From assembly GCA_022760435.1 (NCBI GenBank), contig JALEFY010000037.1:211944-275943 (forward strand): a stretch of 64,000 nt of DNA. Reading direction: 5' to 3'. Origin of the DNA: Neomegalonema sp. Lineage in GTDB: Bacteria; Pseudomonadota; Alphaproteobacteria; Rhodobacterales; Rhodobacteraceae. The position numbers and the translations under genes are program-made. The notes beneath the pieces are model-generated. The model was not told where the DNA came from. It saw only the letters and a list, made by a program, of their open reading frames with translations, and did no database searches. Below, piece by piece: positions 10,173-55,350 of this stretch; position 1 is the stretch's first letter; each line of letters opens with the position of its first letter.

Positions 10173-10348
10173 GCGCCCCCACGCTCCCTTGTCCTTCTTG
10201 GCCCTTGCAAGCCCTCTGACCATGCCAACCAACCAGATCATTACGCCCATCCCACTCGCCTGACCGCTCACGATATCCAAACCGGACCGGCCCTTCACCC
10301 GTGCATCCACCCGCTCCGCCTATACGCCGCCGACTGCTCCAGTCGGTG

Positions 10349-10955
10349 ACTGCATCCGCATGAACACCCTGCCTCCCCCCCTCCATTCCGCGCAGATGCG
10401 GCACGATCAGGGCAAGCGGACGACTTGAGCGGGGCGCGGGATAACCTTACCTCATCATCAAAATCGGTTTCGCGATTTAAGATAAAATTAAGAGCGCGCG
10501 GAAAATAGTGTTGGCACAGGTTGCATTACGCATATAGCATTCCAGCGGGTGCACCGTCCGAAGGATTGCATGAAGCTCGGAGAGCACCTGGTTCGGATAT
10601 TACAGACTTGTTGCAATATTGCAGCAAATCCCCGGCACTGACCGCGACCCCAGTCGCAGCTCCACCTGCAGCAAAGGCGCGCAAGGCCGGGAAAGATCGG
10701 AAGTTTAACCGCGTAACGGTGTCCCGACGCGGAAGAAGCAGGCGACCAGCATTGGGCGCTTATAGGTTTGGCAAGGTATGTGGCTCGCAGTTGTCATGGC
10801 AGAAGAAGGCAGCGCCGTTTTGCGGCGCGTCCCCGCCATGCTGAGCTCGCCACAGCATCGACATCTGAAAGGACGGCGCGTCTTCAGCGCCCTGCGGAAG
10901 GCCCTTTGGTGGGACCCATCGCACCGCGCAAGAGGCGGGCCGCGAGTAATCACTC
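10349..10955 (+). promoter_or_regulatory. long (~0.6 kb), AT-richer 5' leader of rne; probable autoregulatory UTR
   Basis: It is non-coding and compositionally distinct. It contains the perfect palindrome TTGCAATATTGCAA (10609-10622) and several stem-forming stretches. Long structured rne leaders are known from other bacteria. Confidence 0.5.
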
Positions 10956-19520: not shown

Positions 19521-20879
19521 TTGGACCTGCCGATGTTCGAGAAAATCCTGATCGCCAATCGCGGCGAAATCGCCCTTCGCATTCACCGCGCCTGCAAGGA
19601 AATGGGCATCAAGACGGTCGCGGTGCATTCCACCGCCGATGCCGATGCCATGCATGTGCGACTGGCTGATGAAAGCGTCTGTATCGGCCCGCCGCAGGCG
19701 GCGAAATCCTATCTCAACGTCCCGGCGCTGATCACGGCTTGTGAACTCACCGGCGCAGAGGCGATCCATCCGGGCTATGGCTTCTTGTCCGAGAATGCCA
19801 GCTTCGCGCAGATCGTGACCGAGCATGGGCTCACCTTTATCGGCCCCACCGCCGATCATATCCGTTTGATGGGCGACAAGATCATGGCCAAGGAGGCCAT
19901 GATCGAATTGGGCGTTCCTTGCGTGCCGGGCTCTGATGGCGGCATTCCGGATGTGAAAGAGGCCAAGAAGGTCGCCAAGAAGATCGGCTATCCAGTGCTG
20001 ATCAAGGCGTCCTCGGGCGGCGGCGGACGCGGCATGAAACTCGCGCGCAGTGAAGAGGAGCTGGCAACCGCCTTCTCGACGGCGCGTTCAGAGTCCAAGG
20101 CTGCCTTTGGCGATGACACTGTCTATATGGAAAAATATCTCGAGCTGCCCCGGCATATCGAGATCCAGGTGGTTGCCGACAGCCATGGTAATGTCGTCCA
20201 TCTGGGTGAGCGCGACTGCTCCTTGCAGCGCCGCCACCAGAAGGTGCTTGAAGAAGCCCCCTCCCCGGCCCTCAACGCCAAGGATCGCGAGAAGATCGGT
20301 AAGACGGTCTCCAAAGCGATCCAGAAGATGGGATATCTGGGCGTGGGGACCATCGAGTTCCTGTATGAAAATGGCGAGTTCTATTTCATCGAGATGAACA
20401 CCCGGCTTCAGGTCGAACACCCTGTGACCGAAGCGATCTACAACGTGGATCTGGTGCGCGAACAGATCAGCATTGCCGCCGGCAATCCGCTGTCCTTCTC
20501 CCAAGATCAGGTCGAGCCCTATGGCCACGCGATCGAGTGCCGGATCAATGCCGAGCACCCCGCCACCTTTGCCCCGTCTCCGGGCACGATCAACAGCTTC
20601 CACGCGCCGGGCGGGCTTGGCATTCGGATGGATAGCGCGATCTATACCGGCTACCGGATCCCGCCCCATTATGACAGCCTGATCGGCAAGCTGATCGTAC
20701 ATGGCCGCACCCGCAATGAATGCCTGATGCGGTTGCGCCGTGCGCTGGGTGAGATGGTCGTCGATGGCGTGCTGACCACCACGCCGCTGTTTCAGGCGTT
20801 GATGTCCGAGCCTGACTTCATCAATGGCGAATACAACATCCATTGGCTTGAAAAATGGCTGGAGAAACAAAAGAGCTAG
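19521..20879 (+). CDS. accC: acetyl-CoA carboxylase biotin carboxylase subunit
   Basis: 452 aa ATP-grasp protein ([17 protein letters not shown]...GGGGRGM...) located immediately after accB. Confidence 0.97.
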
Positions 20880-20912
20880 CGCGCGCGCTGGCTCTCACCT
20901 ACCCTTTGCGCC

Positions 20913-21572
20913 ATGAGTGATCGCCGGATTGACCTCACCCCGACGCTGCTGATGAACGCCTATGCGGCGGGCGTCTTTCCCATGGCGGACAGCGCCGATG
21001 ATCCAGAGATTTACTGGGTTGACCCCGCCTATCGCGGGATCATCGATATGGACAATTTCCATATCCCCAAATCGCTCGCAAAAAAGATCAAGCAAGGAAG
21101 CTTCGAGGTTACGGTCGATCATGATTTCGATGGCGTGATGTTGGGCTGCGCCGATCGCACCGAGACCTGGATCAATGCCAAGATCCGCGAGCTCTATAAC
21201 GCGCTGCATGGGCTGGGGCGGGCGCATAGTATCGAGGTCTGGATGGATGGCGAGCTGGCGGGCGGGCTCTACGGCGTAACCCTGGGCGCGGCCTATTTTG
21301 GCGAGAGCATGTTCAGCTACCGCACCGATGCCTCGAAGATCGCGCTGGTCTATCTGCTCGCGCGATTAAAGGCTGGCGGGTTCGTGCTGCTCGACACCCA
21401 ATTCGTCACCGAGCATCTGCGCCGGTTTGGCGCGCGGGAGATGGCGCGGGCCGAGTATCATCGGCAACTCGGCAACGCGCTGGAGATGGAAGCGGATTTC
21501 CTGGAGCTCGACCCGCAAACGCCGGCTCAGGAAATCTTGCAGCTCAGCACCCAGACATCGAAACGCGGGTGA
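20913..21572 (+). CDS. aat: leucyl/phenylalanyl-tRNA--protein transferase
   Basis: 219 aa with the conserved LLxAYxxGxFPM... motif. Confidence 0.9.
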   Translation: MSDRRIDLTPTLLMNAYAAGVFPMADSADDPEIYWVDPAYRGIIDMDNFHIPKSLAKKIKQGSFEVTVDHDFDGVMLGCADRTETWINAKIRELYNALHGLGRAHSIEVWMDGELAGGLYGVTLGAAYFGESMFSYRTDASKIALVYLLARLKAGGFVLLDTQFVTEHLRRFGAREMARAEYHRQLGNALEMEADFLELDPQTPAQEILQLSTQTSKRG

Positions 21573-22036
21573 TCCATGGCCGAGAGGGCCGGTGAGGACG
21601 CGAACATCCATCCCGAATAGGCCTGAAGCGGCGGATCGGCCTTGGTATCGAAGACTTGCAGGAAGGCGCTGGCATCGAGAGCCGAGGCCGAGACCCGCTG
21701 GTTGCAGGCTTGCGCCGAAATCAACAGCCGCTCATAGCGGCCCTGCTCGCCGATCTTGATCTCGAACTTTTGGGAAGTACCGGTCAGCTTGTCGAGCCCA
21801 CGCAAAACGACGGTGACGCCGGGCGTGCTGGTCACTTCCTCCTGCGGGATCGTGCCGGGATCGCCCAAAGCCTCTCGCAGCGCATCGGCGGTGGCGTCCA
21901 GCGCATTGCCAGGGATCGGCGCAGGCTCACTATCAGTGCCTTGCAGGGGCGCCGGGTCCTGCTGCGCCAGAGCCGGCCCGAAACCGCCCAGCAAGAGAGC
22001 CGCCGTTGTGATCGCCAGTGCTGACCGCCGGATCAT
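21527..22036 (-). CDS. DUF2155 family periplasmic protein
   Basis: Signal peptide plus the conserved DUF2155 C-terminus. It sits next to MlaD, as is typical in alphaproteobacteria. Its 3' end overlaps aat convergently by 46 bp. Confidence 0.7.
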   Translation of the reverse strand: MIRRSALAITTAALLLGGFGPALAQQDPAPLQGTDSEPAPIPGNALDATADALREALGDPGTIPQEEVTSTPGVTVVLRGLDKLTGTSQKFEIKIGEQGRYERLLISAQACNQRVSASALDASAFLQVFDTKADPPLQAYSGWMFASSPALSAMDHPRFDVWVLSCKIS

Positions 22037-22491
22037 TCGGCGCCTCCACCAGCAGTGGTGTGGATCGCACGGGCTATCAGATCCATGAAATTCACCGAGC
22101 CCTGAGTGAGCTCGATCTCCTCGCCCCCCTCGAGCAAGATATCCGACACGCCCGGCTCGATCGACAGATAGGCGCTGCCCAGCAGCCCGTCCGAGGCGAT
22201 CTTGGCTGAGCTGTCCTCAGGCACGAGCACCCCATTCTCGACCGCCAGAATGACGCGAGCACGGGCGCGCTCCTGGTTGAGGGAAACTTGCTTCACCGAG
22301 CCGACCCGCACGCCAGCGATGCGCACATCGGCGCCGGGGGTCACGCCCTCAACGCTGCGAAATTCCGCGATCAGATCATAGCCACCGGCGGACGAACCCG
22401 GCGAGCTGTTCGAGGCATAGAGGGCAAAGCCCACCGCCACAGCGACGACGACCGCGCCGACCAGCGTTTCAAACGGGTTCTCGATCTTCAT
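22033..22491 (-). CDS. mlaD: MlaD / Mce-family lipid-asymmetry protein
   Basis: N-terminal TM and Mce domain (IAEFRSVEGVTPGADVRIAGVRVGSV). Confidence 0.8.
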   Translation of the reverse strand: MKIENPFETLVGAVVVAVAVGFALYASNSSPGSSAGGYDLIAEFRSVEGVTPGADVRIAGVRVGSVKQVSLNQERARARVILAVENGVLVPEDSSAKIASDGLLGSAYLSIEPGVSDILLEGGEEIELTQGSVNFMDLIARAIHTTAGGGAE

Positions 22492-22621
22492 CCGGCTTCA
22501 TCCCTGATAGCAACTCGACAGGCCGCGGATGCGGCGCCGTGCGGGCGCGCCTTGCCGCCCATGAACAGCGCGCACTATTCGCAGGATCTGTGGCGCGATC
22601 AAGTCAAGGACGCGCGATTTC

Positions 22622-23005
22622 TCAGCCGTTTGGGGACCAGGCGGTATAATCGCCACTCACACGCGGGCGTTCCTCGGGTGTGAGCACCGAGCCTGGCGGG
22701 TGATAGGCGGCGGCCGTTCCGGTCATATTGGCGCTATGCGCCTTTTCCCAGGGCTTCTGGGGCAAGGGTGCCTCGGTCGGCGGCGCATCATAGGTGTGGT
22801 GCAACCAGCCATGCCAATCTGGCGAGACCCGTGAGGCTTCGGAAACGCCGTTGAAGATCACCCAGCGGCGTTTGCCACCCTTGGTCTGATAATAGACATT
22901 GCCCTGATCATCCTCGCCGACCTTCTCGCCATTCATCGCCGTGAACAGGCGGGTGCCGAGGGTCTGACCGTTCCACCAGGTAAAGATCTGCGAAAACAAG
23001 CTCAC
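22622..23005 (-). CDS. NADH:ubiquinone oxidoreductase subunit NDUFA12-like protein
   Basis: The [22 protein letters not shown]...YYQT signature, at 127 aa. Confidence 0.85.
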
Positions 23006-23140
23006 CGGAGACTCCCTTGATCATCTGCGGCGCACTATGGCGAGGCCGGGGGATTTCGTCCAGCCCTGCCGGGCGCATGCCCTCAAAGAAGCGCGCGCAG
23101 CGTCGCCGACGCGGTGAACCCCCGCGCCGGCTGAAGCGAC

Positions 23141-23500
23141 TTACTTTTTCTTGTCGTAGATCGCTTCTTTTTTGAAGTGCTTGGCAAGCAGGTAATAGAC
23201 CACCGCGCGGTGCTTTTGCTTGGTGGATTTGCCGTATTGATCGATCACCGACGCGATGGCGCCGTCCAGATCTTCGCTTTCGGACAGGCCGAGCTTTTTC
23301 ATCAGGAAGTTGGTCTTCACCCGCTCCAGCTCGCTGTTATCGCTCGACGATACCAGTGAACTATCCGCGTTATAGATGGCCGGACCGCAGCCGATGGTCA
23401 CCTTTTTCAGGAAGTCCATATCCGGCTCGACACCGCATTTGGATTTCAGGTCCTCGGCATATTTAGCGATCAAAGCGTCCCGCTTGCTCATGGTTTTCAC
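23141..23500 (-). CDS. small conserved hypothetical protein (DUF2853-like)
   Basis: 119 aa, Lys-rich and soluble. The family assignment is from memory only. Confidence 0.5.
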   Translation of the reverse strand: MKTMSKRDALIAKYAEDLKSKCGVEPDMDFLKKVTIGCGPAIYNADSSLVSSSDNSELERVKTNFLMKKLGLSESEDLDGAIASVIDQYGKSTKQKHRAVVYYLLAKHFKKEAIYDKKK

Positions 23501-23586
23501 TCCCTATCACAACCTAGTGGGAATTGTTGTCTTAACCCCTATAAACCGGGCACAGCGCAGCGTCACCACAAATTTGTCGAGTGAGA

Positions 23587-24717
23587 TCAAAGGCTCGGCA
23601 AGTCGCCCTGGGCGCGCAATGCGTGAAAATCATGCTCGAAAGCGGCAAATTCACCATTTTGGATAGCCGAACGCATCCCGCTCATCAATTCTTGGTAATA
23701 ATGCAGGTTATGCCAGGTCATCAGCATCGATGAGATGATCTCCTGCGCCTTGAAAACGTGATGCAGGTATGCACGAGAGTAATGGCTACAGGCCGGGCAG
23801 GCGCAATCGGGATCTAGCGGGCGCGGATCATCGGCATGGCGGGCGTTCTTGATATTGATCACCCCGCGCCGGGTGAAGGCCTGACCATTGCGCCCCGAGC
23901 GGGTCGGCAGCACGCAATCGAACATGTCCACCCCGCGCGCCACCGCCCCGACCAGATCATCGGGCTTGCCCACCCCCATCAGATAGCGCGGTCGATCCTC
24001 GGGCAGCATGTCGGGCGCATGATCGAGCACGCCGAACATCAGCTCCTGCCCCTCGCCCACCGCCAGCCCGCCGATCGCATAGCCGTCAAAGCCGATCTCA
24101 CGCAGCGCATCGGCGCTCTGTGCGCGCAGATCCGGATAGATGCTGCCCTGCTGAATACCGAACAGGAAATGCCCCTCACGCGTCCCGAACGCGCTGCGCG
24201 AGCGCTCGGCCCAGCGCATCGACAGCTCCATGGAGGCGCGGGCCACGCCCTCATCGGCCGGAAAAGGCGTGCATTCGTCAAAGGCCATCACGATATCCGA
24301 GCCCAGAAGCCGCTGGATCTCCATCGAGCTTTCCGGGGTCAGCAGCCAGTCCGAACCGTCGATATGGCTCTTGAAGCGCACCCCCTGCTCGGTCAGCTTG
24401 CGCAGCTTGGCCAGCGACATCACCTGAAAGCCGCCTGAGTCGGTGAGAATGGGCCGGTCCCAGTTCATGAACTGGTGCAGCCCGCCCAGGGCCGCGACGC
24501 GCTCGGCGCCGGGGCGCAGCATCAGGTGATAGGTATTGCCGAGCAGGATATCGGCGCCGGTCTCGCGCACCTGCCCGGGCAGCATCGCCTTCACGGTGGC
24601 CGCAGTGCCAACCGGCATGAAGGCCGGCGTACGGATCTCGCCGCGCGGGGTCGAGATCAGGCCCAGCCGCGCCTTGCCATCAGTTTTGCTCAGCTTGAAG
24701 AACGGGGCTGTACTCAC
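23587..24717 (-). CDS. tgt: queuine tRNA-ribosyltransferase
   Basis: TIM-barrel TGT motifs, a Zn-binding CxCxxC...H and the catalytic Asp region. A GTG start was chosen ([14 protein letters not shown]...). The 552-aa track ORF is an upstream extension. Confidence 0.9.
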
Positions 24718-24825
24718 GCTACTTTCCTGACTAGTTTTCTCGGAAGATGGACGCGCCGCCGCGCGCGCCTTATATGTCAAACCAAATGAGGCATCAGCGC
24801 CTAGCAAGCGCGGAAGGAAACAGCA

Positions 24826-25206
24826 ATGGATCATGCATCCGCTCCGGCTCAGGTTGCCGCCCCGCTTGAGGGCGAGCCCCTGATCCGCCCCTCGAGCACC
24901 GATCATCCGCTTTATGACAATGTCATCGAGGCGATCCGGACCGTGTTCGACCCCGAGATCCCGGTCAATATCTATGATCTCGGGCTGATCTATACCGTGC
25001 TCATTTCGCAAGAAGGGGATGTCGATATCGACATGACCCTGACCGCGCCTGGCTGCCCGGTCGCTGGCGAGATCCCCGGCTGGGTCGCCGATGCTGTCGA
25101 GCCCCTCCCCGGGGTGAAGACGGTCGATGTCGAGATCGTCTGGGACCCGCCCTGGGACATGAGCCGGATGAGCGATGAAGCCCGGCTCGAACTGGGCATG
25201 CTGTAA
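24826..25206 (+). CDS. DUF59 / SufT-like Fe-S assembly protein
   Basis: 126 aa with the DUF59 motif ([17 protein letters not shown]...TLTAPGCP). Confidence 0.8.
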
Positions 25207-25217
25207 GGGGAGGCATT

Positions 25218-25577
25218 GTGATGTTTGGCATTCCCGGAAAAGCACCGCTGACCCTGACGCCGGAGGCGGCCGAGCAGGTGCGCGCGCTCATGGCGGGCTC
25301 GGATGGCAAGGTCGTCGGCCTGCGCATTGGCGTGAAAAAGGGCGGCTGCGCTGGCATGGAATACACCATGGACTACGCCGAAGAGATCGGCCCGCATGAT
25401 GAGGTCGTCGAGCAGGACGGCGCCCGCGTGCTCATTGCGCCGATGGCGGCGATGTTCCTGATCGGCACCGAAATCCATTACGAGACCTCGCTGCTCGAGG
25501 CCGGGTTCAAGTTCCGCAACCCCAATGTCGTCGACGCCTGCGGCTGCGGCGAATCGGTGAAATTCGCCGAGCTGTGA
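25218..25577 (+). CDS. A-type Fe-S cluster carrier (IscA/SufA/ErpA family)
   Basis: 119 aa with three conserved Cys (GGCAGMEY...CGCGES). Confidence 0.88.
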
Positions 25578-43570: not shown

Positions 43571-44689
43571 CTACTGCGCCGCTGCCGGTGTCGCGGCCAC
43601 TTGCGGCGCCAAGGGGTCAGCAACCAGTTCCGCATCACAGGCGCGCAGCCGGGCGAGGCCACCAAAGGCGCTGAAAGCGTTCTGCGCCGCCGCGGCGATC
43701 GCGGCCGGCGTGATCGGCCCCGGCGGGATCGCCTCTTTTGGGAAGATGACTGTCACCGTCTCCCCTGCCCCATAGACCCGGGTCGCACCACGACTTTGCG
43801 GAAGCGTCTCAACCCCGCGCAGCGCCTTGTGCAGCGCCACGGATCCTTCGCCGGAAATCCAGCCCGGGCCGATATCACCGATGATCGCCGGGCTCATCCG
43901 GCCTGAAACGGGCTCAAGCACCATGGCCAAATCGCCCCGATCAACGCCGCGCAGGGCAAATTCGCGCCCCGATGGCCGAATGATGAACGGCACTTCCAGC
44001 GCGTTGAGATAGCGCCCCTGCTCGCACAATCCCTTCTCCGGATCGGCGGCAAGGGCCGTCGGCGCGATCATGTAGCCAGCATAGGGCGCCTGCTGATTGA
44101 GGCAGGGCCGATATTTCTCCGGTCGGCGATCACCCTGCCGCGCGACGCCCCACAAGATCAGGCGGGCGCCATCCTCGGGCTCCCAATTCCCATCGCGTAT
44201 ATGTTCGAACTCCGAGACCAGCTTGCGGCACTGATCCGGGCGCACGATGCGCCGGTCAGCGGCAAAGACCGACATCGCATTGCAAACGGTATTGATCGCA
44301 AGGCCGGTCTCGCCCCACGGATCCTTGGGATGGAAGGAATTGGGCGCGCCATCGGTATTCACCGCCATCACCGAACGCAGGACAAGCGCTTGATCATCCG
44401 CAAGAACGACGCGATCACCGTCATAGCGGGTATTGTGCACGAAGCGCGATCCGAGCGCACAGGCGGCAGGCTCGGACGCGGGAGTTGCCTCTGTCTCGGT
44501 CGCCTCTGCCTGGGTACCAGCATCGACAGGCGCTTGCGCAGGCCCGGGCACCGATCCGGTCTGCAACGCATCCAGCGGGGTCTGACCCTCCGCCACACTT
44601 CCCGGAGCAGGCAAGATCTCCCCGGAATGGAAAAGCGCGCAGCCGCTCAGGCTCAGCACCGCGATCAGCGCAGCAAAACAGGATCTCAT
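43571..44689 (-). CDS. hypothetical lipoprotein
   Basis: Lipobox signal peptide MRSCFAALIAVLSLSGC, then a Pro/Ala/Thr-rich linker and a globular domain. The start was chosen at the lipoprotein signal. I recognise no family. Confidence 0.55.
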   Translation of the reverse strand: MRSCFAALIAVLSLSGCALFHSGEILPAPGSVAEGQTPLDALQTGSVPGPAQAPVDAGTQAEATETEATPASEPAACALGSRFVHNTRYDGDRVVLADDQALVLRSVMAVNTDGAPNSFHPKDPWGETGLAINTVCNAMSVFAADRRIVRPDQCRKLVSEFEHIRDGNWEPEDGARLILWGVARQGDRRPEKYRPCLNQQAPYAGYMIAPTALAADPEKGLCEQGRYLNALEVPFIIRPSGREFALRGVDRGDLAMVLEPVSGRMSPAIIGDIGPGWISGEGSVALHKALRGVETLPQSRGATRVYGAGETVTVIFPKEAIPPGPITPAAIAAAAQNAFSAFGGLARLRACDAELVADPLAPQVAATPAAAQ

Positions 44690-44898
44690 TGCGGCCTCCC
44701 CACTTGTCCCAGATCGAATCGAACCACTCCCCGAAGCTGAAGTGTTAACGCTCTCGGTCAATGCCGTGAACCCCTCTCGCTCCGATCGACGCGGGAGAGA
44801 ACCAGTGCGTGCCATATTATGCACGCGCGCGGCCGCGCCCAGAGGTGATGGCCAGAGGTTGCAACCATGGCGAATTCACCTTGCTGCATCGGTTTTGA

Positions 44899-46977
<2,079 letters not shown>

Positions 46978-47211
46978 CCCCTCTCCCGCCGCTTCGAAAA
47001 GGAGGGCGCACGCGCCCTCCGGTCATCATCGGTGCCGTTTAGAGACGGCGTCGGAGATGGTAATGCGCATTCCGACGCGGTCTGCTCATCCGGGCCATTG
47101 GCCGCTGCCCATTACAGCCCCCCATCGGTACGGATGAAGGATCTCTTGAGAGGGTACAGCGAAGCGAGAAATTGATCACAACAATCTATCGGCTGATGGA
47201 TAACGCGGCAC

Positions 47212-48618
47212 TCACGTCATTTTAAAGAGATCGATCCAATCCCGATTGACCATTGCAGGTATTGATCTAGCATAGACTCCTCCGCGATGACCCAGCCTTA
47301 AGTTGATACTTGAATAGATATCCACATTCTCATCTGCCAATCTATCATTCATGGATATAAAAAACCAAATGTAGAATTGAGGGCAATAGTCTGAGCCAAG
47401 TCCATCAGCGCGCTCATGACCATCAAGGACCCTCCCCAAGAAAGGGCGGATTCCAAAGTATTCCTCAAGCGATTTGCGATCAATTTCAGCGCTCAAAAAT
47501 TTGGGGTATAGATCTGGACGAGCAATTTTTGAAACAACCAGCGTAACAGCGACGGCCACCCAAACTTCATTAGATTTTTCTCCAGTCAGGAGACTCGAAG
47601 CAAGCAGAGATGTGGCACTCAGAATTTTCCCAACGTCTCTTAGGGAAATTTGGTTGTTTCGAGAAACAATTTCGATTTGCTCCCTCATCGGTGCCGCAAT
47701 ATGCTCTGAAAGCGCCATTTGAGAAACTTGGAAATCAAAATAATTAAGAATATCACTGCATGGGCCGTATTGGCCGACACTCTCACGCGGCATAGAAAAT
47801 GTTACATGGATGAATTTGCGTAAATAAGCCGATGCATCGATGTTGGCGCCGTAGCGCGCCATCACGCTGTTCTCCAAGGCCTTGAGGTTCACCCCCAGGA
47901 CAAATATGACCCCGGGAATGTCGAAGAAGTGCTTTATCACTTCCAGGGTCTCCAACGCATAATCGGGTCGGCAGCGGTCCAGCTCATCAATGACGATGAC
48001 GAGTTTGCCTTGCGCGCTGGGTGCAGCATCTGCTTTCTCGGCTTTTTGGGCAGAGGGCTCCTGGGATACCAGTTCCTTGAGCGCTGTGCGAAATTCCGCC
48101 ATAGCCTCGCGCCGTCCGTCTTCTTGCGCCCAATATTTCCCCAATGCATGAGAGAATTCTTTGCTCGTAGCGTCGATCGCCGCACCACCAACAGCAGAAG
48201 CTACTTCTGTTGCTCCACAAGTTGCTATGGCTAATCCAATTCGTGCAGCAGGTTTGGCAAGCTTCAAGACAGCGGCTTTCACCTGCTTTACGACACCCTC
48301 TTTTTCCTCTGGAAAGCGATCGCCTAAAGCAGAGACAAGCGCCGGAAGCGGATCGCTGACGTAATCATTGGCAAAGGCATCAAAGTACACCATCGTTGCG
48401 CTGCGTGCTTCGTCCAAAGTGTGCGCGCCGACCCATCGCTTCAGGAAATATGTTTTTCCAGTGCCCCAACCGCCATCCAAGGCGACAACCATTGGATCGT
48501 CGATCCGCTCCACAAGGTCGGAAAGAGACTTCCCAACGCTCTTGCGGTTTAGAATATCGTTCTCCTCGAAGCCCTCTTTGTAGAGATCAACTTCAGGCTC
48601 TGATGGGAAAATTTTCAT
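47212..48618 (-). CDS. KAP-family P-loop NTPase
   Basis: 468 aa with Walker A LDGGWGTGKTYFLKRW and Walker B VIVIDELDRC. The gene sits in a strongly AT-rich stretch. Confidence 0.8.
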   Translation of the reverse strand: MKIFPSEPEVDLYKEGFEENDILNRKSVGKSLSDLVERIDDPMVVALDGGWGTGKTYFLKRWVGAHTLDEARSATMVYFDAFANDYVSDPLPALVSALGDRFPEEKEGVVKQVKAAVLKLAKPAARIGLAIATCGATEVASAVGGAAIDATSKEFSHALGKYWAQEDGRREAMAEFRTALKELVSQEPSAQKAEKADAAPSAQGKLVIVIDELDRCRPDYALETLEVIKHFFDIPGVIFVLGVNLKALENSVMARYGANIDASAYLRKFIHVTFSMPRESVGQYGPCSDILNYFDFQVSQMALSEHIAAPMREQIEIVSRNNQISLRDVGKILSATSLLASSLLTGEKSNEVWVAVAVTLVVSKIARPDLYPKFLSAEIDRKSLEEYFGIRPFLGRVLDGHERADGLGSDYCPQFYIWFFISMNDRLADENVDIYSSINLRLGHRGGVYARSIPAMVNRDWIDLFKMT

Positions 48619-48896
48619 TTATTTTCTGCCCACTAATCTCTCGCCGGCTAATCTGCTGCCGATGGTTGATATGTAAATTTATTTGGCGCCGCTTGAGCAT
48701 ACACCGTCTTGGCAACTCATTATTATCAATGTTTGCTGAGTTCAATCCCGCTTTATGACTTGAAGTATTTTAGTGGGTTAGCCTAGGTCACACGCAAAAT
48801 TTAACAGCAGTTATGGGATCGTTTATTCGCGACAATTCGAATTGGGCGGCTCCCCAGCTTATCCGCACACCGCCGCCCCCCAACCAATGCGCACAC

Positions 48897-48930
48897 AAAA
48901 AGCGGGGCCTTGTGGGCCCCGCTTGATAAA
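48897..48930 (-). terminator. rho-independent terminator for the minus-strand membrane-protein gene
   Basis: The reverse complement reads tttatcaagcggggcccacaaggccccgcttttt. Confidence 0.6.
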
Positions 48931-48968
48931 GACGCTGGCAGCAGCGTTGGTTTTGGCAATGGCTCGGC

Positions 48969-49580
48969 TCAGTGCCCTGTCGGCAGAACCCCGCCAAAAT
49001 CGCGCCGGGCTACCGCTTGCCCCACGATCCGATCCAGCAACAGATCTCCGATCCCCACCAGAGTGATCACCATGAAGGCGGTGGTGCCGAACCAGCTCAC
49101 GGTGAAGAACAGCACCAGACAGACCAGCGTCACCACCAGCGACATCCAGTCATTGCCCGAGATATCGCGCGCGGCGGTGGCCCGGATCACTTCGATCCAG
49201 CTTGCCAGAAAGCCGAAGATCACGAACAGGCTGGTCCAGGTGATCGGGAACTCGGTGCCGCTGACCAGCGGAACCTTGAACAGCGATGCGTCGAGCACGC
49301 ATTCAACTTGCTCAGCAACCGAGGCAGGCTGCACTTGGGCATCGGTAACGACAGCCGCCGTGCCTTCCCCCTCAACCGCGACGCCGTCCACCTGCTCGCC
49401 GATCGGAGCGGTGATCACGACATCGGTATTCGCGCGCTCGCACGCGTCATCGGCCATCGAGCCGCCCCAGACATTGGGCAGCGCAACAATACCGACATAG
49501 ACAACATAGAAAGCCGCCAGAAACAGATAGGCGGGCATACCGCGCCCGAACAAACGCCAGAACCAATCCATCGATCCCAC
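48969..49580 (-). CDS. hypothetical membrane protein
   Basis: 203 aa with hydrophobic helices at both ends and an acidic central region. A terminator lies immediately downstream. Confidence 0.45.
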   Translation of the reverse strand: MGSMDWFWRLFGRGMPAYLFLAAFYVVYVGIVALPNVWGGSMADDACERANTDVVITAPIGEQVDGVAVEGEGTAAVVTDAQVQPASVAEQVECVLDASLFKVPLVSGTEFPITWTSLFVIFGFLASWIEVIRATAARDISGNDWMSLVVTLVCLVLFFTVSWFGTTAFMVITLVGIGDLLLDRIVGQAVARRDFGGVLPTGH

Positions 49581-49715
49581 TCCCTTTCACTTGGCACCAG
49601 CGCCAGAAGCACACAGCGCGAAACAATCGGTTGCACTTAAGCCAATGACGCGCTTGTTGTCTATCGTGAAGCGGCTCGAGGGTTTTCGCCCCTGTTGCAT
49701 CGAGAAGGAGAGACC

Positions 49716-50471
49716 ATGCAGATCAGCATATCGGACCGCGAAGACCTGCCCATGGCTCGGCTGCCCGAGCGCCCGCTCTTCGCGATCGGAGATCTGCATG
49801 GATATAGCGATGCGCTCGATGCGCTGCACGGGCAGATCCGCAACACGGTGCTGCACGAACATGAAGGGCCGGTCGATCTTGTCTATCTTGGCGATTATGT
49901 GGATCGCGGCCCCGATCCGCTCGGCGTGCTCGATCGCGTGGCGACGGGGCTGGAGCTGCCCAATGTCACCGAACGCCGCCTGATCGGCAATCACGACCAG
50001 TTCCTGATGATGGCGGCGGCAATCGGCGGCTATCTCTATGATCCCGGTGCCTATGATGCCTGGGTGCGCTTTGGCGGCATGGAGACCTTGCAAGCGATGG
50101 CGCTGGAGGTCGATTGCCCGGCAGGCGAGGTCCGCGAAGCCCTCGGCCAGGACCGGGTGGCGATGCTCGAGGCCTTGTCGGTCGGCTTTCGCAGCGGCGA
50201 TATCTTCTGCGCCCATGCCGGGGTGAACCCCGACCGCCCTCTCTCCCAGCAGCGGCCCGATGATCTGTTGTGGATCCGCGAACCCTTCCTGAGCTGCAAG
50301 CAATGGCCGCATGAGGTGACGGTGGTTCATGGCCACACGCCGGGCAGCGAGGGCGTTTTCAGCCACCGGATCGGCGTGGATACCGGCGGCTGCTTTGGCG
50401 GCCCTTTCACCGCAGCCGAGATCAGCCCGCAAGGCTGGGTGCGCTTTCATCAGGTCCGCAAGGTGAGCTAG
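49716..50471 (+). CDS. PP2A/PPP-family metallophosphoesterase (Ser/Thr phosphatase / ApaH-like)
   Basis: Calcineurin-like motifs GDLHG, GDYVDRG, GNHD, and the HAGV/GHTP histidines. A strong RBS AAGGAGAG precedes the ATG at 49716. Confidence 0.85.
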   Translation: MQISISDREDLPMARLPERPLFAIGDLHGYSDALDALHGQIRNTVLHEHEGPVDLVYLGDYVDRGPDPLGVLDRVATGLELPNVTERRLIGNHDQFLMMAAAIGGYLYDPGAYDAWVRFGGMETLQAMALEVDCPAGEVREALGQDRVAMLEALSVGFRSGDIFCAHAGVNPDRPLSQQRPDDLLWIREPFLSCKQWPHEVTVVHGHTPGSEGVFSHRIGVDTGGCFGGPFTAAEISPQGWVRFHQVRKVS

Positions 50472-50486
50472 CAGGACGTGTGTCAA

Positions 50487-51389
50487 ATGCCATTCCCACT
50501 TTCACCGCAGAGCATCGATGCAATAGCCTTTATCATCAGCGGAGGCGCCGCCAATGCTGACGCGGCGCCTGTCGGGCTTTACCGTAGTGGTCCTAAGATC
50601 GAAAAGTTCATGCATGCATGCAACGTTGCCTTCACGCTCGACGGTTCTAGGGTGCCGTCGCTGGTTAATTGCTTGATCAGACTGAACAATGGTCACGAGG
50701 CGGCGACGGTTCTGCCTAGAATTATCGAAGCTGCCGCCGACCCACGCGACTTCGTGCATGATCCTGACCGCCACTCCGCTGTTTGCGACTATCTAAACCG
50801 TGCACTCCGCTTCGACGGATTCGAACTACAGAATCACGGTGTTAGGATGCGATTGCTCGAGGCTGGCAAAGGTGTACCGGTACTAACAGAACTAGCTGGG
50901 CTGTCAGAAGTTATCGACTTCGACACAGTGAGCCGTGATCTGGACCGAGCCCTCGAGAGCAGCCAAACGGATCCTGAAGATGCCGTTACTGCCGCATGCA
51001 GCACCATTGAGAGCGTGTGCCGTTCCATTTTGATTGATCTCGGTGAGCCTCTGCCCAAAAAGAAGGACGTTCAGGGGCTCTACAACGCGGTAAAGCAACC
51101 GCTCGGCCTTTCGACTGACCGGTCCGACATCGACCCCACAATTGCGAATGATGTGCTTCAGATACTATCCGGCCTTGCTAATGTTGTCCGCGGTGTTGGC
51201 GCCCTTCGTACGCACGGTGGCGATGCCCATGGCCGGGAGAAGGGCTATGCTCGAATTGACGCAAGAATCGCCAGGCTTGCCATTCATGCCGCAAGCACGG
51301 CAGCGCTCTTCCTCATTGAGACTTGGCAGCGAAAGTTCCCGGACCGTCCGCTGCCCAAAGCGACCGAGACTTCTCAGGATACCGATTGA
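50487..51389 (+). CDS. hypothetical protein with Abi_C-like (abortive-infection C-terminal-type) domain
   Basis: About 300 aa, with no TM and lower GC than its neighbours. The C-terminal block ...VTAACSTIESVCRSIL...NVVRGVGALRTHGGDAHGR...RLAIHAASTAALFLIETW resembles the Abi_C motif (recalled from memory, not HMM-confirmed). The start lies 7 bp (GTG 50478) or 15 bp (ATG 50487) after the phosphatase stop. Confidence 0.5.
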   Translation: MPFPLSPQSIDAIAFIISGGAANADAAPVGLYRSGPKIEKFMHACNVAFTLDGSRVPSLVNCLIRLNNGHEAATVLPRIIEAAADPRDFVHDPDRHSAVCDYLNRALRFDGFELQNHGVRMRLLEAGKGVPVLTELAGLSEVIDFDTVSRDLDRALESSQTDPEDAVTAACSTIESVCRSILIDLGEPLPKKKDVQGLYNAVKQPLGLSTDRSDIDPTIANDVLQILSGLANVVRGVGALRTHGGDAHGREKGYARIDARIARLAIHAASTAALFLIETWQRKFPDRPLPKATETSQDTD

Positions 51390-51684
51390 AGTTTCACCGG
51401 TCTGGCAGCAATGAGCTTTCAATCGATCAACGCCAGCTTCCCCGACAACAATTGACTTCTCCCGGCTTCGCGCAGCTACGACAACCCCCTGTTTTGACTT
51501 GAATTCGCCTGATGCGAGCAACGAACACGGAGCAAACCGCCTCAGGAGGTTCGCTGGACATTCTCGCCCTCAGACGCCGTCGTCGGAGACAGGTGCAAAA
51601 CCGAGTTGGAGACGACGCATGAAGAAAAACATAACGAAATCATCCGCCGGCCGCGCCTGCGCGCCCAGCGGATGATCTCGCCCG

Positions 51685-52872
51685 TCACTTCAGCTTGGCG
51701 ATATCGCTGAGCAGGCCCTGCGGTCCGTTATGGACCACCAGATTGCCGACCCGCCCCGCGATCGTCTCCAATGCCTCGAGCTCCTTGAGCCGAAGCATGA
51801 TCGGGTTCTCCTCCATCACCTTGGCGGTGTTGAGCAGCGAGCGCGTGGCGGCTGTCTCCTCGCGCCGGCGGATCACATTGGCCTGAGCCTGTTTCTCCGC
51901 ACTCACCACCTGGTTCAGGATCTCGCGCATCTCACCCGGCAAGATCACGTCCTTGAGCGCGATCTCGCCGACCTCGATGCCGATTTCCCGCATCTCGGAG
52001 CGGATCTGCTCCGCGGCTTCGGCATCGACCGAGACCTTGTTGGCCAGGATCTCGTCGAGCGTCTTCGCCCCGAGGGTCTTGCGGAAGGCGTATTGAACCG
52101 CCCGGTACAGCGCGTCCGAATAGTCCTTCACCTCCCGCACCGCTTTCAGCGGATCGGTGACCCGGTAATCCGCCGCCAGATTGACCCGGATCGAGACCCG
52201 GTCCTTGGTCAGGATCTCCTGCCCGGAGACATCGAGCGCGTGCCGGCGCAGATCGACGAGCTTGACGCTGACCGATCGGCCGACGCTCCAGAACAGGGTT
52301 TTACCCGCGCCGAGCATCCGCTGATACGCGCCATCAACAAAAAGCAGGCCCGCCTGCTCGTTCTCGACCTCGACGCGAGTGATGTTGGCCCGCATCCCCG
52401 GTTTGCTCAACAGGCTCTGCGGGGCGATCAGCCGCTCGATCCGGCGCGCGAGAGCTGCCGGGATCTCCTGTGCCTCACGCACATCGAACCGCTCGATCGT
52501 CCACGGACCGGCCGCCGTCCAGACCACCCGGCGCTCATCGGGGCCGAGCAGGCTGTCGGGCTGACCATTACGGGTGATCAACGCAATCTCATCGGCGCTG
52601 GTGCGGATCTCGGTCAAATGGGCCTCGACCAGATCCGGGCGCTCGCGAAACAACGCCTGCGCATAGGAAGACGAGAAGTCGGGATTGCCCAGCGCGTGCC
52701 GCTCGATCTCCACAGCCTTGCCCGCCGAGCGGAGCACGTGCTCGCCGGGGGTGAGGATGTCGGAAAAGCGACCTTGCACCAATACCAGTGCGCGCTCGTT
52801 CTCCGAAATGGTCAGGCGGGTTCGCCCGAGAAGGGCGTCGATCATCAATTTCATGGTCTGGGTCATCGTCAT
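51685..52872 (-). CDS. SPFH/band-7 domain protein without N-terminal TM
   Basis: About 395 aa. The C-terminal half has SPFH and coiled-coil features (ILTKDRVSIRVNLAADYRV..., EAAEQIRSEMREIGIEVGEIALKDV...QANVIRRREET). The N-terminal ~190 aa is soluble and unassigned. Confidence 0.7.
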   Translation of the reverse strand: MTMTQTMKLMIDALLGRTRLTISENERALVLVQGRFSDILTPGEHVLRSAGKAVEIERHALGNPDFSSSYAQALFRERPDLVEAHLTEIRTSADEIALITRNGQPDSLLGPDERRVVWTAAGPWTIERFDVREAQEIPAALARRIERLIAPQSLLSKPGMRANITRVEVENEQAGLLFVDGAYQRMLGAGKTLFWSVGRSVSVKLVDLRRHALDVSGQEILTKDRVSIRVNLAADYRVTDPLKAVREVKDYSDALYRAVQYAFRKTLGAKTLDEILANKVSVDAEAAEQIRSEMREIGIEVGEIALKDVILPGEMREILNQVVSAEKQAQANVIRRREETAATRSLLNTAKVMEENPIMLRLKELEALETIAGRVGNLVVHNGPQGLLSDIAKLK

Positions 52873-53246
52873 TCTCGTCTGTCTTGTCGCTACCAGGGGT
52901 CGTCCATGGACGCTCTTTCGTTTGGGGTTGAGGGTTGAAGGGTAAGGCCGCCTTGTGGAAGGGCGAGGGCAGGGATCTTCGGAGCCTGCCAGACGGGGCG
53001 CGAACGGGCTGGATGGAGTGGACGTCGAAGATTGTCGGCGGGGCGGCATGCCGCAGCAGACCACCTGACCGAGAACCGTCTAAGCCATGCCATCGAGCAC
53101 AAGGCGCGCGCCGCGCCGCCGGACCGGAACTCATCCCGCAACGCCGAAGCGATGACGGGCCTCATCCTCTGCGCGGCCAGGCCGCTCCGAAGACCATTGC
53201 GTATGCCAGCACCTGAAGCTGGTGAAACCTTCAAAGGGTTTCGAGG

Positions 53247-53319
53247 GGCAAATGACGGGAATCGAACCCGCTTCCAACAGAGTAACAGTCTGCTGCTCTA
53301 CCATATGAGCTACATATGC
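53247..53319 (-). tRNA. tRNA-Asn (anticodon GTT)
   Basis: The minus-strand sequence GCATATG-TA-GCTC-ATATGGTA-GAGC-A-GCAGA-CTGTTAC-TCTGT-TGGAA-GCGGG-TTCGATT-CCCGT-CATTTGC-C folds as a cloverleaf with a GTT anticodon. There is one T:T acceptor-stem mismatch, and the 3' tail is encoded as CCT. Confidence 0.7.
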
Positions 53320-53527
53320 GTCTCAGTCCCGTTTTCCGGGGCAGCGGCAAACGCGGTGGCAGGGCCAGGCGCTCCGGCGCGGTTTGGACCCGCGGCCAAG
53401 GCTGCTCAAGGAAGTCTCGGAAGACCGAGGCGCGCAAAATGGTGATTTGTTCGGCTTAACACAAGGAGAAAACCCCTGAACGGCGAGAGGTGCCTTCAGG
53501 TGTCACCCAAAAGCATCTTCGCACGCG

Positions 53528-54808
53528 TCAGAGCAGGACCTGCACGCAGATCATCGCAAAGACCAGCGCCAGATCCGCCACCAGAAACGGGATGACCCCG
53601 GCAAAGATCTGCTCGAGCTTCACATGATCCTTGGCCACCGAGTGGATCACGAACACATTGAGCCCGACCGGCGGCGTGATCATGCCGATCTCCAGGAGCT
53701 TGGCGAGCAGCAGACCGAACCAGATCTTCTCAACGCCATAGCTCGCCATGAGCGGCAGGAACAGCGGCAGGGTGAGCAGCATCGCGCCGATCGGCTCGAG
53801 GAACATGCCGAGCGCGAGATAGACGAGCACGATCATCAGCAGCAGCGCGAACAGCCCCAGCTCCATGCCGCCGATCCAGCCCGAGAGCGCCGAGGACAGG
53901 CCGGAAAAGGCGACGAGCCGGGTGAACAGATTTGCGCCAATCGCGATCATGAATAGCGAGCCGCAGGCCAGCAGGGTATCGACGACGCTCTCCCGAAAAT
54001 CATGCCAACTCAAGGTGCCGCGCGCGACCGCAATCAGGATCGAGAACACCGCCCCGACCGCGCCAGCTTCGGTGGCGGTGAACAGGCCCGAGAACAGGCC
54101 GCCAAACACCACCGCGATCAGCAGCAGCACTGGCCAGACCTCACGCGTGGCCCGCAACCTCTCGGCCAGCGAGTGGCCTTGCGCGGCGGGCAGGCGCTCG
54201 GGCCAGCGCCAATAGACCACAAAGATCGCCGCGATATAGAAGGCGAGGGATAACAGCCCCACGACCAGCCCGCCCATGAAGAGCTGGGTGATCGAAACCT
54301 CCGCCTGAATGCCATAGAGAATGAGCAGGATCGAGGGCGGGATCAGCGCGCCGATGGTGCCACCCGCGGCGACAGAGCCGGTAGCGATGCGGATGTCATA
54401 GCCCTGCTTCTTCATCTCCGGCACTGCGATCCGGCCGATCGCGGCCGAGCAGGCAACCGAGGAGCCGGTCACGGCCGCAAAGCCGCTCGCCCCGAACAGC
54501 GCCGCGATCGCAAGCCCGCCCGGCAGCCATCCCCACCAGATCCGCGCGGCCTCGAACAACCCCTTGGTCAGTCCCGAATGATAGGCGACATACCCCATCA
54601 GCAAGAACATGGGCACAGAGGACAGGGTCCAGCTCGCGGCAAAACCGTAAGGCGCGGTGGACATCAGCGAGAAGGCCGGACGCCAGCCGACAATGCTCCA
54701 GATCCCGATCACCGAGACCACGATCAGCGACACGGCGACCGGCACGCGCAGCGCAATCAGACCGAGCACGCCCGCCAGGCAAAGCAGGCCGATGGTAAGC
54801 GGGTCCAT
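53528..54808 (-). CDS. dctM: TRAP transporter large permease
   Basis: 426 aa 12-TM protein of the DctM family. Confidence 0.92.
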   Translation of the reverse strand: MDPLTIGLLCLAGVLGLIALRVPVAVSLIVVSVIGIWSIVGWRPAFSLMSTAPYGFAASWTLSSVPMFLLMGYVAYHSGLTKGLFEAARIWWGWLPGGLAIAALFGASGFAAVTGSSVACSAAIGRIAVPEMKKQGYDIRIATGSVAAGGTIGALIPPSILLILYGIQAEVSITQLFMGGLVVGLLSLAFYIAAIFVVYWRWPERLPAAQGHSLAERLRATREVWPVLLLIAVVFGGLFSGLFTATEAGAVGAVFSILIAVARGTLSWHDFRESVVDTLLACGSLFMIAIGANLFTRLVAFSGLSSALSGWIGGMELGLFALLLMIVLVYLALGMFLEPIGAMLLTLPLFLPLMASYGVEKIWFGLLLAKLLEIGMITPPVGLNVFVIHSVAKDHVKLEQIFAGVIPFLVADLALVFAMICVQVLL

Positions 54809-55350
54809 CAGATCACCTCGTCATCATGCGGGCCCATCAGGGCGACATCGTCATGGGGGTCGTCGGAGAACGAGCCGCCGAGCACGGTGATCAGGCGCAA
54901 GACACAGATCAGCACCATCATCCCGAAGCCAATCACCGGGATCCAGTAGGCTGGCCAGGTAACGAAATCCATCGTCCCGGCCTCGACATAAGCGCCGCGT
55001 GCGGTCTTGGAGAGCGCGTCCGTCGCCGATCCCCAGGTCAGCAGCCCATAGGCGCCCGCCGAAAGCAGGAAGCCGAAAAAGAACACCACCGGCATCAGGC
55101 TCTTGGGCAGATAATCGGTGAAGATCGTCGCCTCGATATGCCGCCGCCGCAGCTCGGCATAGGCGACGGGCAGAAAGCTGACCGCGACCATGAAATATTT
55201 CGCGACCAGCTCGGCAGTGACCGGAAACCCGGCCCCCACCACATTTCGCAAGAAAACATCGATGACGATCAGGAGCGCCATCAGGCACAGGATCGCTCCG
55301 CCAAACAGAATTACCGTATGCGAGATGAAACGCTCCAGACCGCGCATCAA
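54808..55350 (-). CDS. dctQ: TRAP transporter small permease
   Basis: 180 aa 4-TM protein immediately upstream of dctM with an overlapping stop/start. Confidence 0.85.
   Translation of the reverse strand: MMRGLERFISHTVILFGGAILCLMALLIVIDVFLRNVVGAGFPVTAELVAKYFMVAVSFLPVAYAELRRRHIEATIFTDYLPKSLMPVVFFFGFLLSAGAYGLLTWGSATDALSKTARGAYVEAGTMDFVTWPAYWIPVIGFGMMVLICVLRLITVLGGSFSDDPHDDVALMGPHDDEVI

Follow-up and report, generated by a model that had tools for sequence, protein, structure and literature searches.

Whether a low-GC block of genes ending at a tRNA gene is a single acquired island with a defence system of its own, or is instead composed of pieces of different origin, is the question raised by a locus of Neomegalonema sp. 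(Alphaproteobacteria). The locus occupies positions 46.98-53.32 kb of a 64,000-nucleotide stretch of contig JALEFY010000037.1 (assembly GCA_022760435.1, positions 211,944 to 275,943 of the forward strand; hereafter the window, in which all positions are given unless another locus is named). Between thiC and a tRNA-Asn gene it contains five genes, encoding a KAP-family NTPase, a small membrane protein, a metallophosphatase, a protein with an Abi_C domain and an SPFH protein. An initial annotation of the DNA had proposed a compositionally foreign 6.3-kb block and a candidate novel multi-gene module. Here, we consider it likely that the region is a mosaic, in which two unrelated single-gene cassettes of defence type were inserted into gaps between native genes. 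The KAP and Abi_C genes are intact new members of known families, horizontally acquired, each in its own cassette, and the locus amounts to a modest, composite defence spot assembled from known gene families rather than to a new system of several genes. The features of the locus are as follows:

47110 to 48800 (approximate), no strand assigned: low-GC foreign segment 1 (KAP cassette), delimited by 100-nucleotide GC windows.
47212 to 48618, minus strand: stand-alone KAP-family P-loop NTPase, predicted to be soluble, 468 amino acids (Pfam KAP_NTPase, 5.1e-38).
48900 to 48924, minus strand: intrinsic-terminator-like hairpin with a T-run, 3′ of the membrane-protein gene (terminator scan and sequence).
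48969 to 49580, minus strand: apparently native membrane protein, 203 amino acids, with approximately four transmembrane segments (hydropathy; no family match).
49716 to 50471, plus strand: apparently native PPP-family metallophosphatase, 251 amino acids, PrpA/PrpB- or lambda NinI-like (Metallophos, 2.7e-13).
50454 to 51642, no strand assigned: foreign segment 2 (Abi_C cassette), 1.2 kb, with 91-95% nucleotide identity to metagenome contig L085 (blastn and MAFFT).
50487 to 51389, plus strand: AbiJ-like protein, 300 amino acids (Abi_C, 3.9e-20), with an N-terminal domain of six helices and a beta-hairpin (residues 1-125) and a C-terminal HEPN motif R241-x6-H248.
51549 to 51642, plus strand: decayed recombinase-module remnant, consisting of the 3′ end of a small open reading frame (ORF), ending ...LDILALRRRRRRQVQNRVGDDA and a stop, and the first 8 codons of a DUF2924 gene.
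51635 to 51680, no strand assigned: inverted repeat with 22-nucleotide arms, 86% complementary, just past the SPFH stop codon (repeat search).
51685 to 52872, minus strand: native SPFH/Band-7 'slipin family' protein without transmembrane segments, 395 amino acids (Band_7, 1.4e-32).
53245 to 53319, minus strand: tRNA-Asn(GTT) (ARAGORN and Rfam).

The mean GC content of the whole window is 63.3%, and the background in 1-kb windows outside 46-52 kb is 0.639 ± 0.028. Two stretches depart from it, one at 47.0-49.0 kb (0.489-0.520, z -5.3 to -4.2) and the other at 50.5-51.5 kb (0.558, z -2.9), in agreement with the AT-rich dips at 47.1-48.9 kb and the depressed gene at 50.5-51.4 kb that had been noticed by eye. 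GC content at third codon positions (GC3) and the codon adaptation index (CAI) were also computed for each gene, with z-scores calculated against 45 other ORFs of the window. Only the KAP gene (GC3 0.49, z -5.5; CAI z -4.4) and the Abi_C gene (GC3 0.575, z -3.9; CAI z -3.9) deviate, whereas the genes for the membrane protein (GC3 z -0.3, CAI z -0.2), the phosphatase (GC3 z 0.0, CAI z +0.75) and the SPFH protein (GC3 z +1.2, CAI z +0.3) are background-like. The foreign DNA thus totals only ~2.9 kb, split in two separate pieces, instead of forming a 6.3-kb block. With regard to gene content, Pfam matches and hydropathy bear out the domain identities initially assigned to all five genes, including the absence of a transmembrane segment in the SPFH protein.

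The membrane protein and the phosphatase appear to be a native, syntenic chromosomal pair of divergent genes, because their codon usage is background-like and they share a housekeeping position in the loci L153, L161 and L162. The order common to these loci is ABC transporter, small membrane protein (divergent), phosphatase, Fe-S biosynthesis, FeS_assembly_P, TGT, an outer-membrane protein of the Toluene_X family, NDUFA12 and MlaD, and the small gene of these loci is homologous to the membrane-protein gene of the window (50-74% identity), whose 203-residue product has no match in Pfam, PADLOC, NCBIfam or PHROG. In a further locus, L156 (Pelagibius marinus), the phosphatase is present and no membrane-protein homologue was detected, and the pair thus occurs in three of the four lineages sampled. 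Homologues of the phosphatase (42-54% identical) are widespread in Alphaproteobacteria. The window enzyme has all PPP motifs intact (GDLHG, GDYVDRG, GNHD and HGH) and full-length similarity to the models of both PrpA/PrpB and lambda NinI Ser/Thr phosphatases, with a value of 4.4e-32 for the NinI-like phrog_246; however, its full-length match to the PrpA/B-type NF008516 (3.1e-5) is well below the equivalog cut-off, and it matches no defence model in PADLOC. On the side of the membrane-protein gene, native sequence resumes at the hairpin at 48900-48924, just short of which the KAP foreign piece ends.

The Fe-S/TGT/NDUFA12/MlaD block that follows the phosphatase in L153, L161 and L162, where it also contains DUF2155, is located at 20199-25577 (20.2-25.6 kb) in the window, inverted and ~23 kb from the phosphatase. 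Since the block is both distant and inverted, the 3′ end of the phosphatase gene, which is the site of the Abi_C remnant described below, is a synteny breakpoint, and the mobile element, now decayed, may have had a part in this rearrangement.

The SPFH gene has homologues 56-65% identical across Alphaproteobacteria, in Mesorhizobium, Hoeflea, Nitratireductor, Rhodobacteraceae and others. Its product is a typical 380-395-residue member of the 'slipin family', akin to bacterial slipin/SPFH proteins though below the equivalog cut-offs, with no hydrophobic segment by hydropathy and no PADLOC match. In L157, L159 and L160, one or more tRNA genes are found ~400 bp upstream of the SPFH homologue on the same strand, and the upstream sequence is partly alignable; because of this recurrence, the adjacency of tRNA and SPFH genes appears to be ancestral. 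The downstream neighbours of the SPFH homologues differ, being ParDE or cytochrome P460, and the variable spot thus seems to lie downstream of the SPFH gene and not at the tRNA. Several of these upstream tRNAs received odd ARAGORN calls: a 75-nucleotide 'tRNA-Leu(tag)' abutting tRNA-Cys(gca) in L157 (7438-7588) and an undetermined tRNA beside tRNA-Met in L160 (7392-7565), the corresponding tRNA site of L159 being 2009-2159. The first L157 tRNA aligns with the 3′ half of the tRNA-Asn of the window.

As initially annotated, a tRNA-Asn gene is present at the right edge, where ARAGORN and Rfam agree on tRNA-Asn(GTT), and integrases, transposases and attachment (att) repeats are missing: none of the ORFs of 46.98-53.32 kb has a Pfam integrase or transposase domain, no copy of the tRNA was found in 46.0-53.24 kb (16-mers, up to two mismatches) and no att-like family emerged from the repeat search. 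The tRNA-Asn is a neighbour of the SPFH gene, not a demonstrable attachment site. A single island delimited by thiC and this tRNA is not compatible with the native codon usage and synteny of three of the five genes.

The second foreign segment is sharply delimited. The closest homologue of the Abi_C protein (92% amino acid identity) is encoded on L085, and the similarity extends to DNA, with 91.5% identity over 50467-51555 and 94.7% over 51549-51642 (L085 9222-9315); nothing else is shared between the two sequences. The GC content of the segment is ~0.55-0.59 against a background of 0.64. In the alignment, similarity begins at ~50454 (GTCCGCAAG...TAG), within the last phosphatase codons, and stops inside the left arm of the inverted repeat 51635-51680, which is probably the SPFH terminator. 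To the right of the cassette, L085 carries a small ORF, a DUF2924 gene (2.8e-45) and a gene for a large serine recombinase (Resolvase 3.4e-38, Recombinase 5.8e-15). Relative to L085, the window has a deletion of ~150 nucleotides at ~51555, in the small ORF, and retains a DUF2924 stub that reads MKKNITKS (51619-51642).

Because of the DNA homology to L085 with its linked recombinase module, together with the stub that was kept, the Abi_C segment appears to be the trimmed remnant of a serine-recombinase mobile element, from which the recombinase module would have been deleted, leaving 8 DUF2924 codons behind. On the left, the cassette would now abut the phosphatase gene and supply its last codons. 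The phosphatase is full length in comparison with 12 homologues, which end 2-4 residues after a conserved RFH(H/Q)V, and its last five codons and stop (50454-50471) fall within the cassette homology; as the L085 homology begins inside the end of the phosphatase gene, this gene ends on cassette-derived sequence. The initial impression of an old and degraded element is therefore appropriate for this 1.2-kb segment, with its truncated DUF2924 gene, and not for the rest of the block.

Such an arrangement resembles the 'RADS' defence cargo located beside serine recombinases (PMC12632615), in that the L085 cassette lies directly upstream of DUF2924 and the large serine recombinase, in a prophage-like context with an S24-type repressor as well. 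The window differs in lacking the recombinase module save for the 8-codon stub, the gene now being fixed in the chromosome. Directly upstream of the Abi_C homologue, L085 also has a low-GC gene of 231 codons (7290-7985) whose product contains an R-x4-H-like motif, FRNNLAHR. It was considered as a relative of Abi_C and proved to be unrelated, without a Pfam or PHROG match; it may be another HEPN-like defence gene.

The Abi_C gene itself is intact. Its start is most plausibly the ATG at 50487, 15 nucleotides after the phosphatase stop, which opens the family-conserved MPFPLSPQS; the 7-bp spacing given in the initial annotation corresponds to an upstream in-frame GTG, 6 nucleotides from the phosphatase gene. 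The Abi_C domain covers residues 201-281 (72.2 bits against a Pfam cut-off of 24), profile positions 105-280 (of 281) of the PADLOC AbiJ model are matched with a value of 1.5e-16, and R241-x6-H248 is invariant in 41 aligned sequences. An AlphaFold2 model has two domains, with a predicted local distance difference test score (pLDDT) of 79.8, and the N-terminal domain modelled alone forms six helices and a beta-hairpin (pLDDT 82, predicted template modelling score 0.77). This domain (residues 1-125) matches no Pfam family, and residues 37-121 are weakly similar to the PADLOC model PD-Lambda-3_B (3e-5); PD-lambda-3 is cited as an abortive-infection system (PMC13190303).

In the literature, AbiJ-family HEPN proteins are described as fusions of an N-terminal non-catalytic domain to a HEPN RNase, often located in restriction-modification operons, and in the mechanism proposed for them, sensing of a phage component by the N-terminal domain leads to release of the toxin (PMC3710099). 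How lactococcal AbiJ itself works has yet to be established, but its escape mutants map to single-strand annealing protein (SSAP) genes (PMC13064643). The window protein is similar to lactococcal AbiJ and to Pfam Abi_C (PF14355) in combining, within one polypeptide, a non-catalytic N-terminal domain and a C-terminal HEPN R-x6-H motif, and its relatives are placed in restriction-modification or defence operons, as described for the AbiJ family (PMC3710099). It differs in that it aligns to the AbiJ model over the C-terminal part only, that its N-terminal domain belongs to no Pfam family and that the alphaproteobacterial subfamily is unusually conserved. By analogy, the protein is probably a one-polypeptide abortive-infection toxin, whose N-terminal helices would perceive a phage signal and restrain the C-terminal HEPN RNase (R241/H248); once released, the RNase would cleave RNA and arrest the infected cell.

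A total of 1649 homologues of the Abi_C protein were found, the best 120 of which are 65-92% identical (apart from the 100% self-match P0001) and ~297 residues long; their hosts include Hoeflea, Thalassobaculum, Hyphomicrobium, many metagenomes and one record with the label Nocardioides marinus, an actinobacterium. An upstream gene was called in 41 Abi_C loci, and in most of these it is co-oriented and ends within ~16 nucleotides of the Abi_C start or overlaps it. These partners are mutually unrelated and comprise T5orf172/MUG113 GIY-YIG-type proteins (7/33), ResIII (3), McrB-like AAA_5, AAA_21/AAA_15 with OLD-TOPRIM, DUF499, SWI2_SNF2/type I R, PIN, DUF559 and NotI. Among the wider neighbours are MmeI-type and other methyltransferases, ResIII, helicases, integrases, resolvases, ParA/VirC1 and NikA. 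In L082-84, the homologue lies in an integrative and conjugative element with type III restriction-modification and an integrase, and in L081 it lies at a prophage end. Across L081-L146 (for example L085:7290-8906 and L082:5380-8891), the homologue is mostly the last gene, with its partner ending 3-16 nucleotides upstream or overlapping, and the recombination junction between differing partners sits right at the Abi_C start codon. Since family members are found 3-16 nucleotides behind a co-oriented gene, the copy in the window is probably transcribed by read-through from the phosphatase promoter. A promoter scan returned sites no more numerous than in shuffled controls. With respect to L081, which is the record labelled Nocardioides marinus, a HemolysinCabind protein is also encoded and the taxonomic label may deserve a check.

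The KAP cassette is an AT-rich segment of ~1.7 kb, with the KAP NTPase and its own upstream region as the sole gene content; GC drops from 0.61-0.65 to 0.37-0.51 between ~47110 and ~48800 in 100-nucleotide windows. No direct or inverted repeats of at least 9 nucleotides were found flanking it. Close DNA or protein relatives were sought to set the ends of the cassette, and the best reached only 43-50% protein identity: the closest relative is 50% identical (among 1.8 billion representatives), with 43% in plasmids and 44% in IMG/VR, the last on contig L150 near a tyrosine integrase and a YqaJ exonuclease. The family is large, with 1554 clusters (50% identity) at E ≤ 1e-30 in an exhaustive search, mostly of ~450 residues. 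Most alignments of 150 listed relatives end near residue 390, and the last ~80 residues (approximately 390-468; 47212-47450) vary across the family and could be a specificity or effector region.

The KAP_NTPase match is strong (131.4 bits against a Pfam gathering score of 20), and both Walker A (GGWGTGKT, G49-T56, with K55) and Walker B (LVIVIDELD, residues 206-214, with D211 and E212) are intact. Many KAP proteins carry transmembrane helices associated with the NTPase domain. In the window protein, no 19-residue window reaches a Kyte-Doolittle value of at least 1.6, and a soluble variant is therefore predicted. All four PADLOC PDC-S20 models match, the best being PDLC04959 (4.8e-83, residues 6-388, profile positions 6-370 of 464), as does the prophage family phrog_8614 (3.6e-71). 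PDC systems are candidates without tested anti-phage activity (10.1101/2024.01.29.577857), and no mention of PDC-S20 was found in the literature. The window protein resembles PDC-S20 and PHROG 8614 in its near full-length hidden Markov model match, its similar size (468 amino acids) and its stand-alone position on horizontally acquired DNA, whereas it differs in its last ~80 residues, which the models leave uncovered, in having a nearest relative only 50% identical and in not being embedded in a known defence system, such embedding having been the criterion for nominating PDCs.

With PifA of the F plasmid, QatA of QatABCD and Enterococcus EF_KAP, the window protein has in common a KAP P-loop core that includes Walker A and B. 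The PADLOC matches to PifA (2.1e-18) and QatA (1e-16) are weak; the score for NCBIfam QatA NF041923 is 65.8 bits, far below the cut-off of 600, no QatB/C/D partner genes are adjacent and the ~250-residue extra regions of PifA and QatA are lacking. EF_KAP is a different KAP NTPase that likewise stands alone, and its protection of Enterococcus depends on Walker B and is non-abortive (PMC12632615); the window protein lacks the transmembrane helices and the 322-residue effector region described for it (PMC12632615). By analogy with PifA and EF_KAP, the KAP protein would most likely be an NTP-driven switch, whose conserved core (residues 1-390) hydrolyses NTP and whose variable last ~80 residues would supply sensing or effector specificity.

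Taken as a mosaic, the locus would have had the ancestral order thiC, divergent membrane-protein/PPP-phosphatase pair and convergent SPFH gene preceded by tRNA-Asn, and two unrelated single-gene cassettes of defence-type families would later have entered the intergenic gaps. Distant relatives retain the membrane-protein/phosphatase and tRNA-SPFH arrangements, but at other chromosomal places. A thiC-based scan with one genome per species yielded 80 loci (best thiC identity 83%), none of them with a shared flanking gene, tRNA-Asn or island gene. Exact look-ups of the window KAP and Abi_C proteins found no identical protein, and the source proteins are singleton 90% clusters in the collections searched.

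Several points weigh against this interpretation. No close relative was found, and the ancestral empty sites are deduced from composition and distant synteny; the KAP segment has neither repeats, nor a recombinase, nor a close DNA homologue that would point to its route of insertion. The phosphatase family also resembles phage NinI phosphatases and may conceivably have a very old phage origin. In addition, the AbiJ model covers the Abi_C protein with only the C-terminal two-thirds of its profile, co-transcription of the Abi_C and phosphatase genes is putative, and so is the anti-phage activity of both foreign genes, PDC-S20 itself being a candidate.

Among the alternatives to the mosaic of defence cassettes, the first concerns function: neither foreign gene would be anti-phage, the KAP protein having some other role and the HEPN protein being a selfish addiction or stabilization toxin left by the decayed element, possibly inert. 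PDC-S20 is only a candidate (10.1101/2024.01.29.577857), HEPN toxins also serve toxin-antitoxin stabilization (PMC3710099) and the Abi_C gene does sit in a decayed remnant. However, both ORFs are intact with their catalytic motifs, the neighbours of Abi_C are overwhelmingly restriction or defence genes, and phage protection is on record for lactococcal AbiJ and for one KAP NTPase that stands alone (PMC13064643, PMC12632615), which makes this explanation unlikely.

A more far-reaching idea, to which we attach little probability, starts from the placement of the Abi_C family. The protein would represent a distinct AbiJ subfamily that rides as a portable last gene, nearly always 3-16 nucleotides behind a co-oriented, unrelated defence gene, and its N-terminal six-helix domain would be a death-fold-like adaptor that couples the HEPN RNase to failure or activation of the upstream system, be it a GIY-YIG nuclease, a type III or type I restriction subunit, a McrB-like ATPase, an OLD/ABC ATPase or DUF499. 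Such a protein would be a generic second-line suicide module, captured here by a housekeeping phosphatase operon.

Initially, the phosphatase had also been described as paired with the Abi_C gene. The two might now form a two-gene module, for example one in which the phosphatase, recruited once the cassette had fused to the 3′ end of its gene, would regulate the HEPN toxin or serve as its antitoxin: the genes are co-oriented with a 15-nucleotide gap, the phosphatase ends on cassette-derived codons, and the family is habitually last behind a tightly spaced partner, so that the Abi_C gene may plausibly depend to some extent on its upstream neighbour, if only for transcription. Yet the upstream partners of the family are of diverse, unrelated kinds and include no metallophosphatase; in 66 Abi_C loci from genomes, metagenomes and IMG/VR, tblastn found no homologue of the phosphatase, of the window-type KAP (E 1e-4), of the membrane protein or of the SPFH protein. 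Moreover, the phosphatase is a syntenic chromosomal gene that has no Abi_C neighbour in any of the four lineages (0/4), and AbiJ-type proteins are described as self-contained sensor-toxin fusions (PMC3710099). A co-opted module is thus very improbable, and comparison of the loci indicates that the two genes do not constitute a conserved module, their adjacency apparently resulting from mobile-element decay rather than function.

That all five genes (KAP, membrane protein, phosphatase, Abi_C and SPFH) form a novel defence system on one ~6.3-kb island integrated at tRNA-Asn is scarcely credible. In its favour, the five genes form a contiguous run with a housekeeping gene on one side and a tRNA on the other, defence-type domains are present in two of them, and in L081 the Abi_C homologue lies ~1 kb upstream of an 1161-residue KAP NTPase (9881-13366), the only other KAP/Abi_C neighbourhood seen. 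Against it, codon usage is native in three of the five genes, the membrane-protein/phosphatase and tRNA-SPFH arrangements recur in other lineages without the remaining genes, the 66 Abi_C loci show no co-occurrence, the DNA homology to L085 singles out the Abi_C gene alone, and both an integrase and an att repeat are lacking. A linked KAP and Abi_C pair, which L081 had prompted, was likewise rejected: KAP_NTPase is outside the 25 most frequent Pfam families (each with at least two members) of 128 neighbour proteins from 20 non-redundant Abi_C loci, and tblastn finds no window-type KAP in the 66 loci. The two cassettes, the phosphatase, the membrane protein and the SPFH protein do not form one system, the last three probably being unrelated bystanders. 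What had been described as defence-like content is accurate for KAP and Abi_C, which are both of defence type and horizontally acquired, but not for the three native genes. Similarly, the initial statement that no named system is matched holds only in part, since the KAP protein matches the PADLOC candidate PDC-S20 and the Abi_C protein the AbiJ model, and the suggested novel multi-gene module gives way to members of known families without conserved co-occurrence.

Finally, although the source is apparently a contig of a metagenome-assembled genome labelled Neomegalonema sp., there is next to no chance that the low-GC pieces are chimeric joins, or artefacts of assembly or binning, since both are short with native-composition sequence on both sides, their junctions coincide with terminators and gene ends, the Abi_C junction gives a continuous reading frame with the phosphatase gene, and a chimera would be expected to leave one breakpoint and not four tidy ones.

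Outside the block, thiC adjoins it as initially stated, with a thiamine pyrophosphate (TPP) riboswitch found upstream:

44917 to 45035, upstream of thiC: TPP riboswitch (Rfam, 68.1 bits).
45097 to 46977, upstream of the block: thiC (ORF), its true start most likely the ATG at 45097.

The longer, TTG-started thiC ORF (from 44911) overlaps the riboswitch, which is why the ATG at 45097 is the most likely start. Other observations in the window include a 417-residue ORF upstream of thiC (43571-44824), which is without a Pfam match and whose GC3 (0.70) ranks second from the bottom in the background set, and a 119-residue ORF of 52% GC beside the TGT gene (23141-23500). A strong AT skew, with A exceeding T on the plus strand (0.27-0.43), extends over 53400-55200 across the minus-strand TRAP genes dctM and dctQ (53528-55350) and probably reflects the composition of these membrane-protein genes.

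Low GC content and a nearby tRNA can mislead: they suggested a large island in this locus, where the actual foreign DNA amounts to two very small insertions, each of a single gene, on either side of native genes. For an alphaproteobacterial lineage that is poorly sampled, the defence repertoire is extended by an intact KAP NTPase of PDC-S20 type and by an AbiJ-like HEPN gene. The observation of widest use is the placement of a conserved AbiJ-like subfamily as the last gene after a variety of defence genes, which fits the published note of AbiJ-type HEPN proteins accompanying restriction-modification operons.

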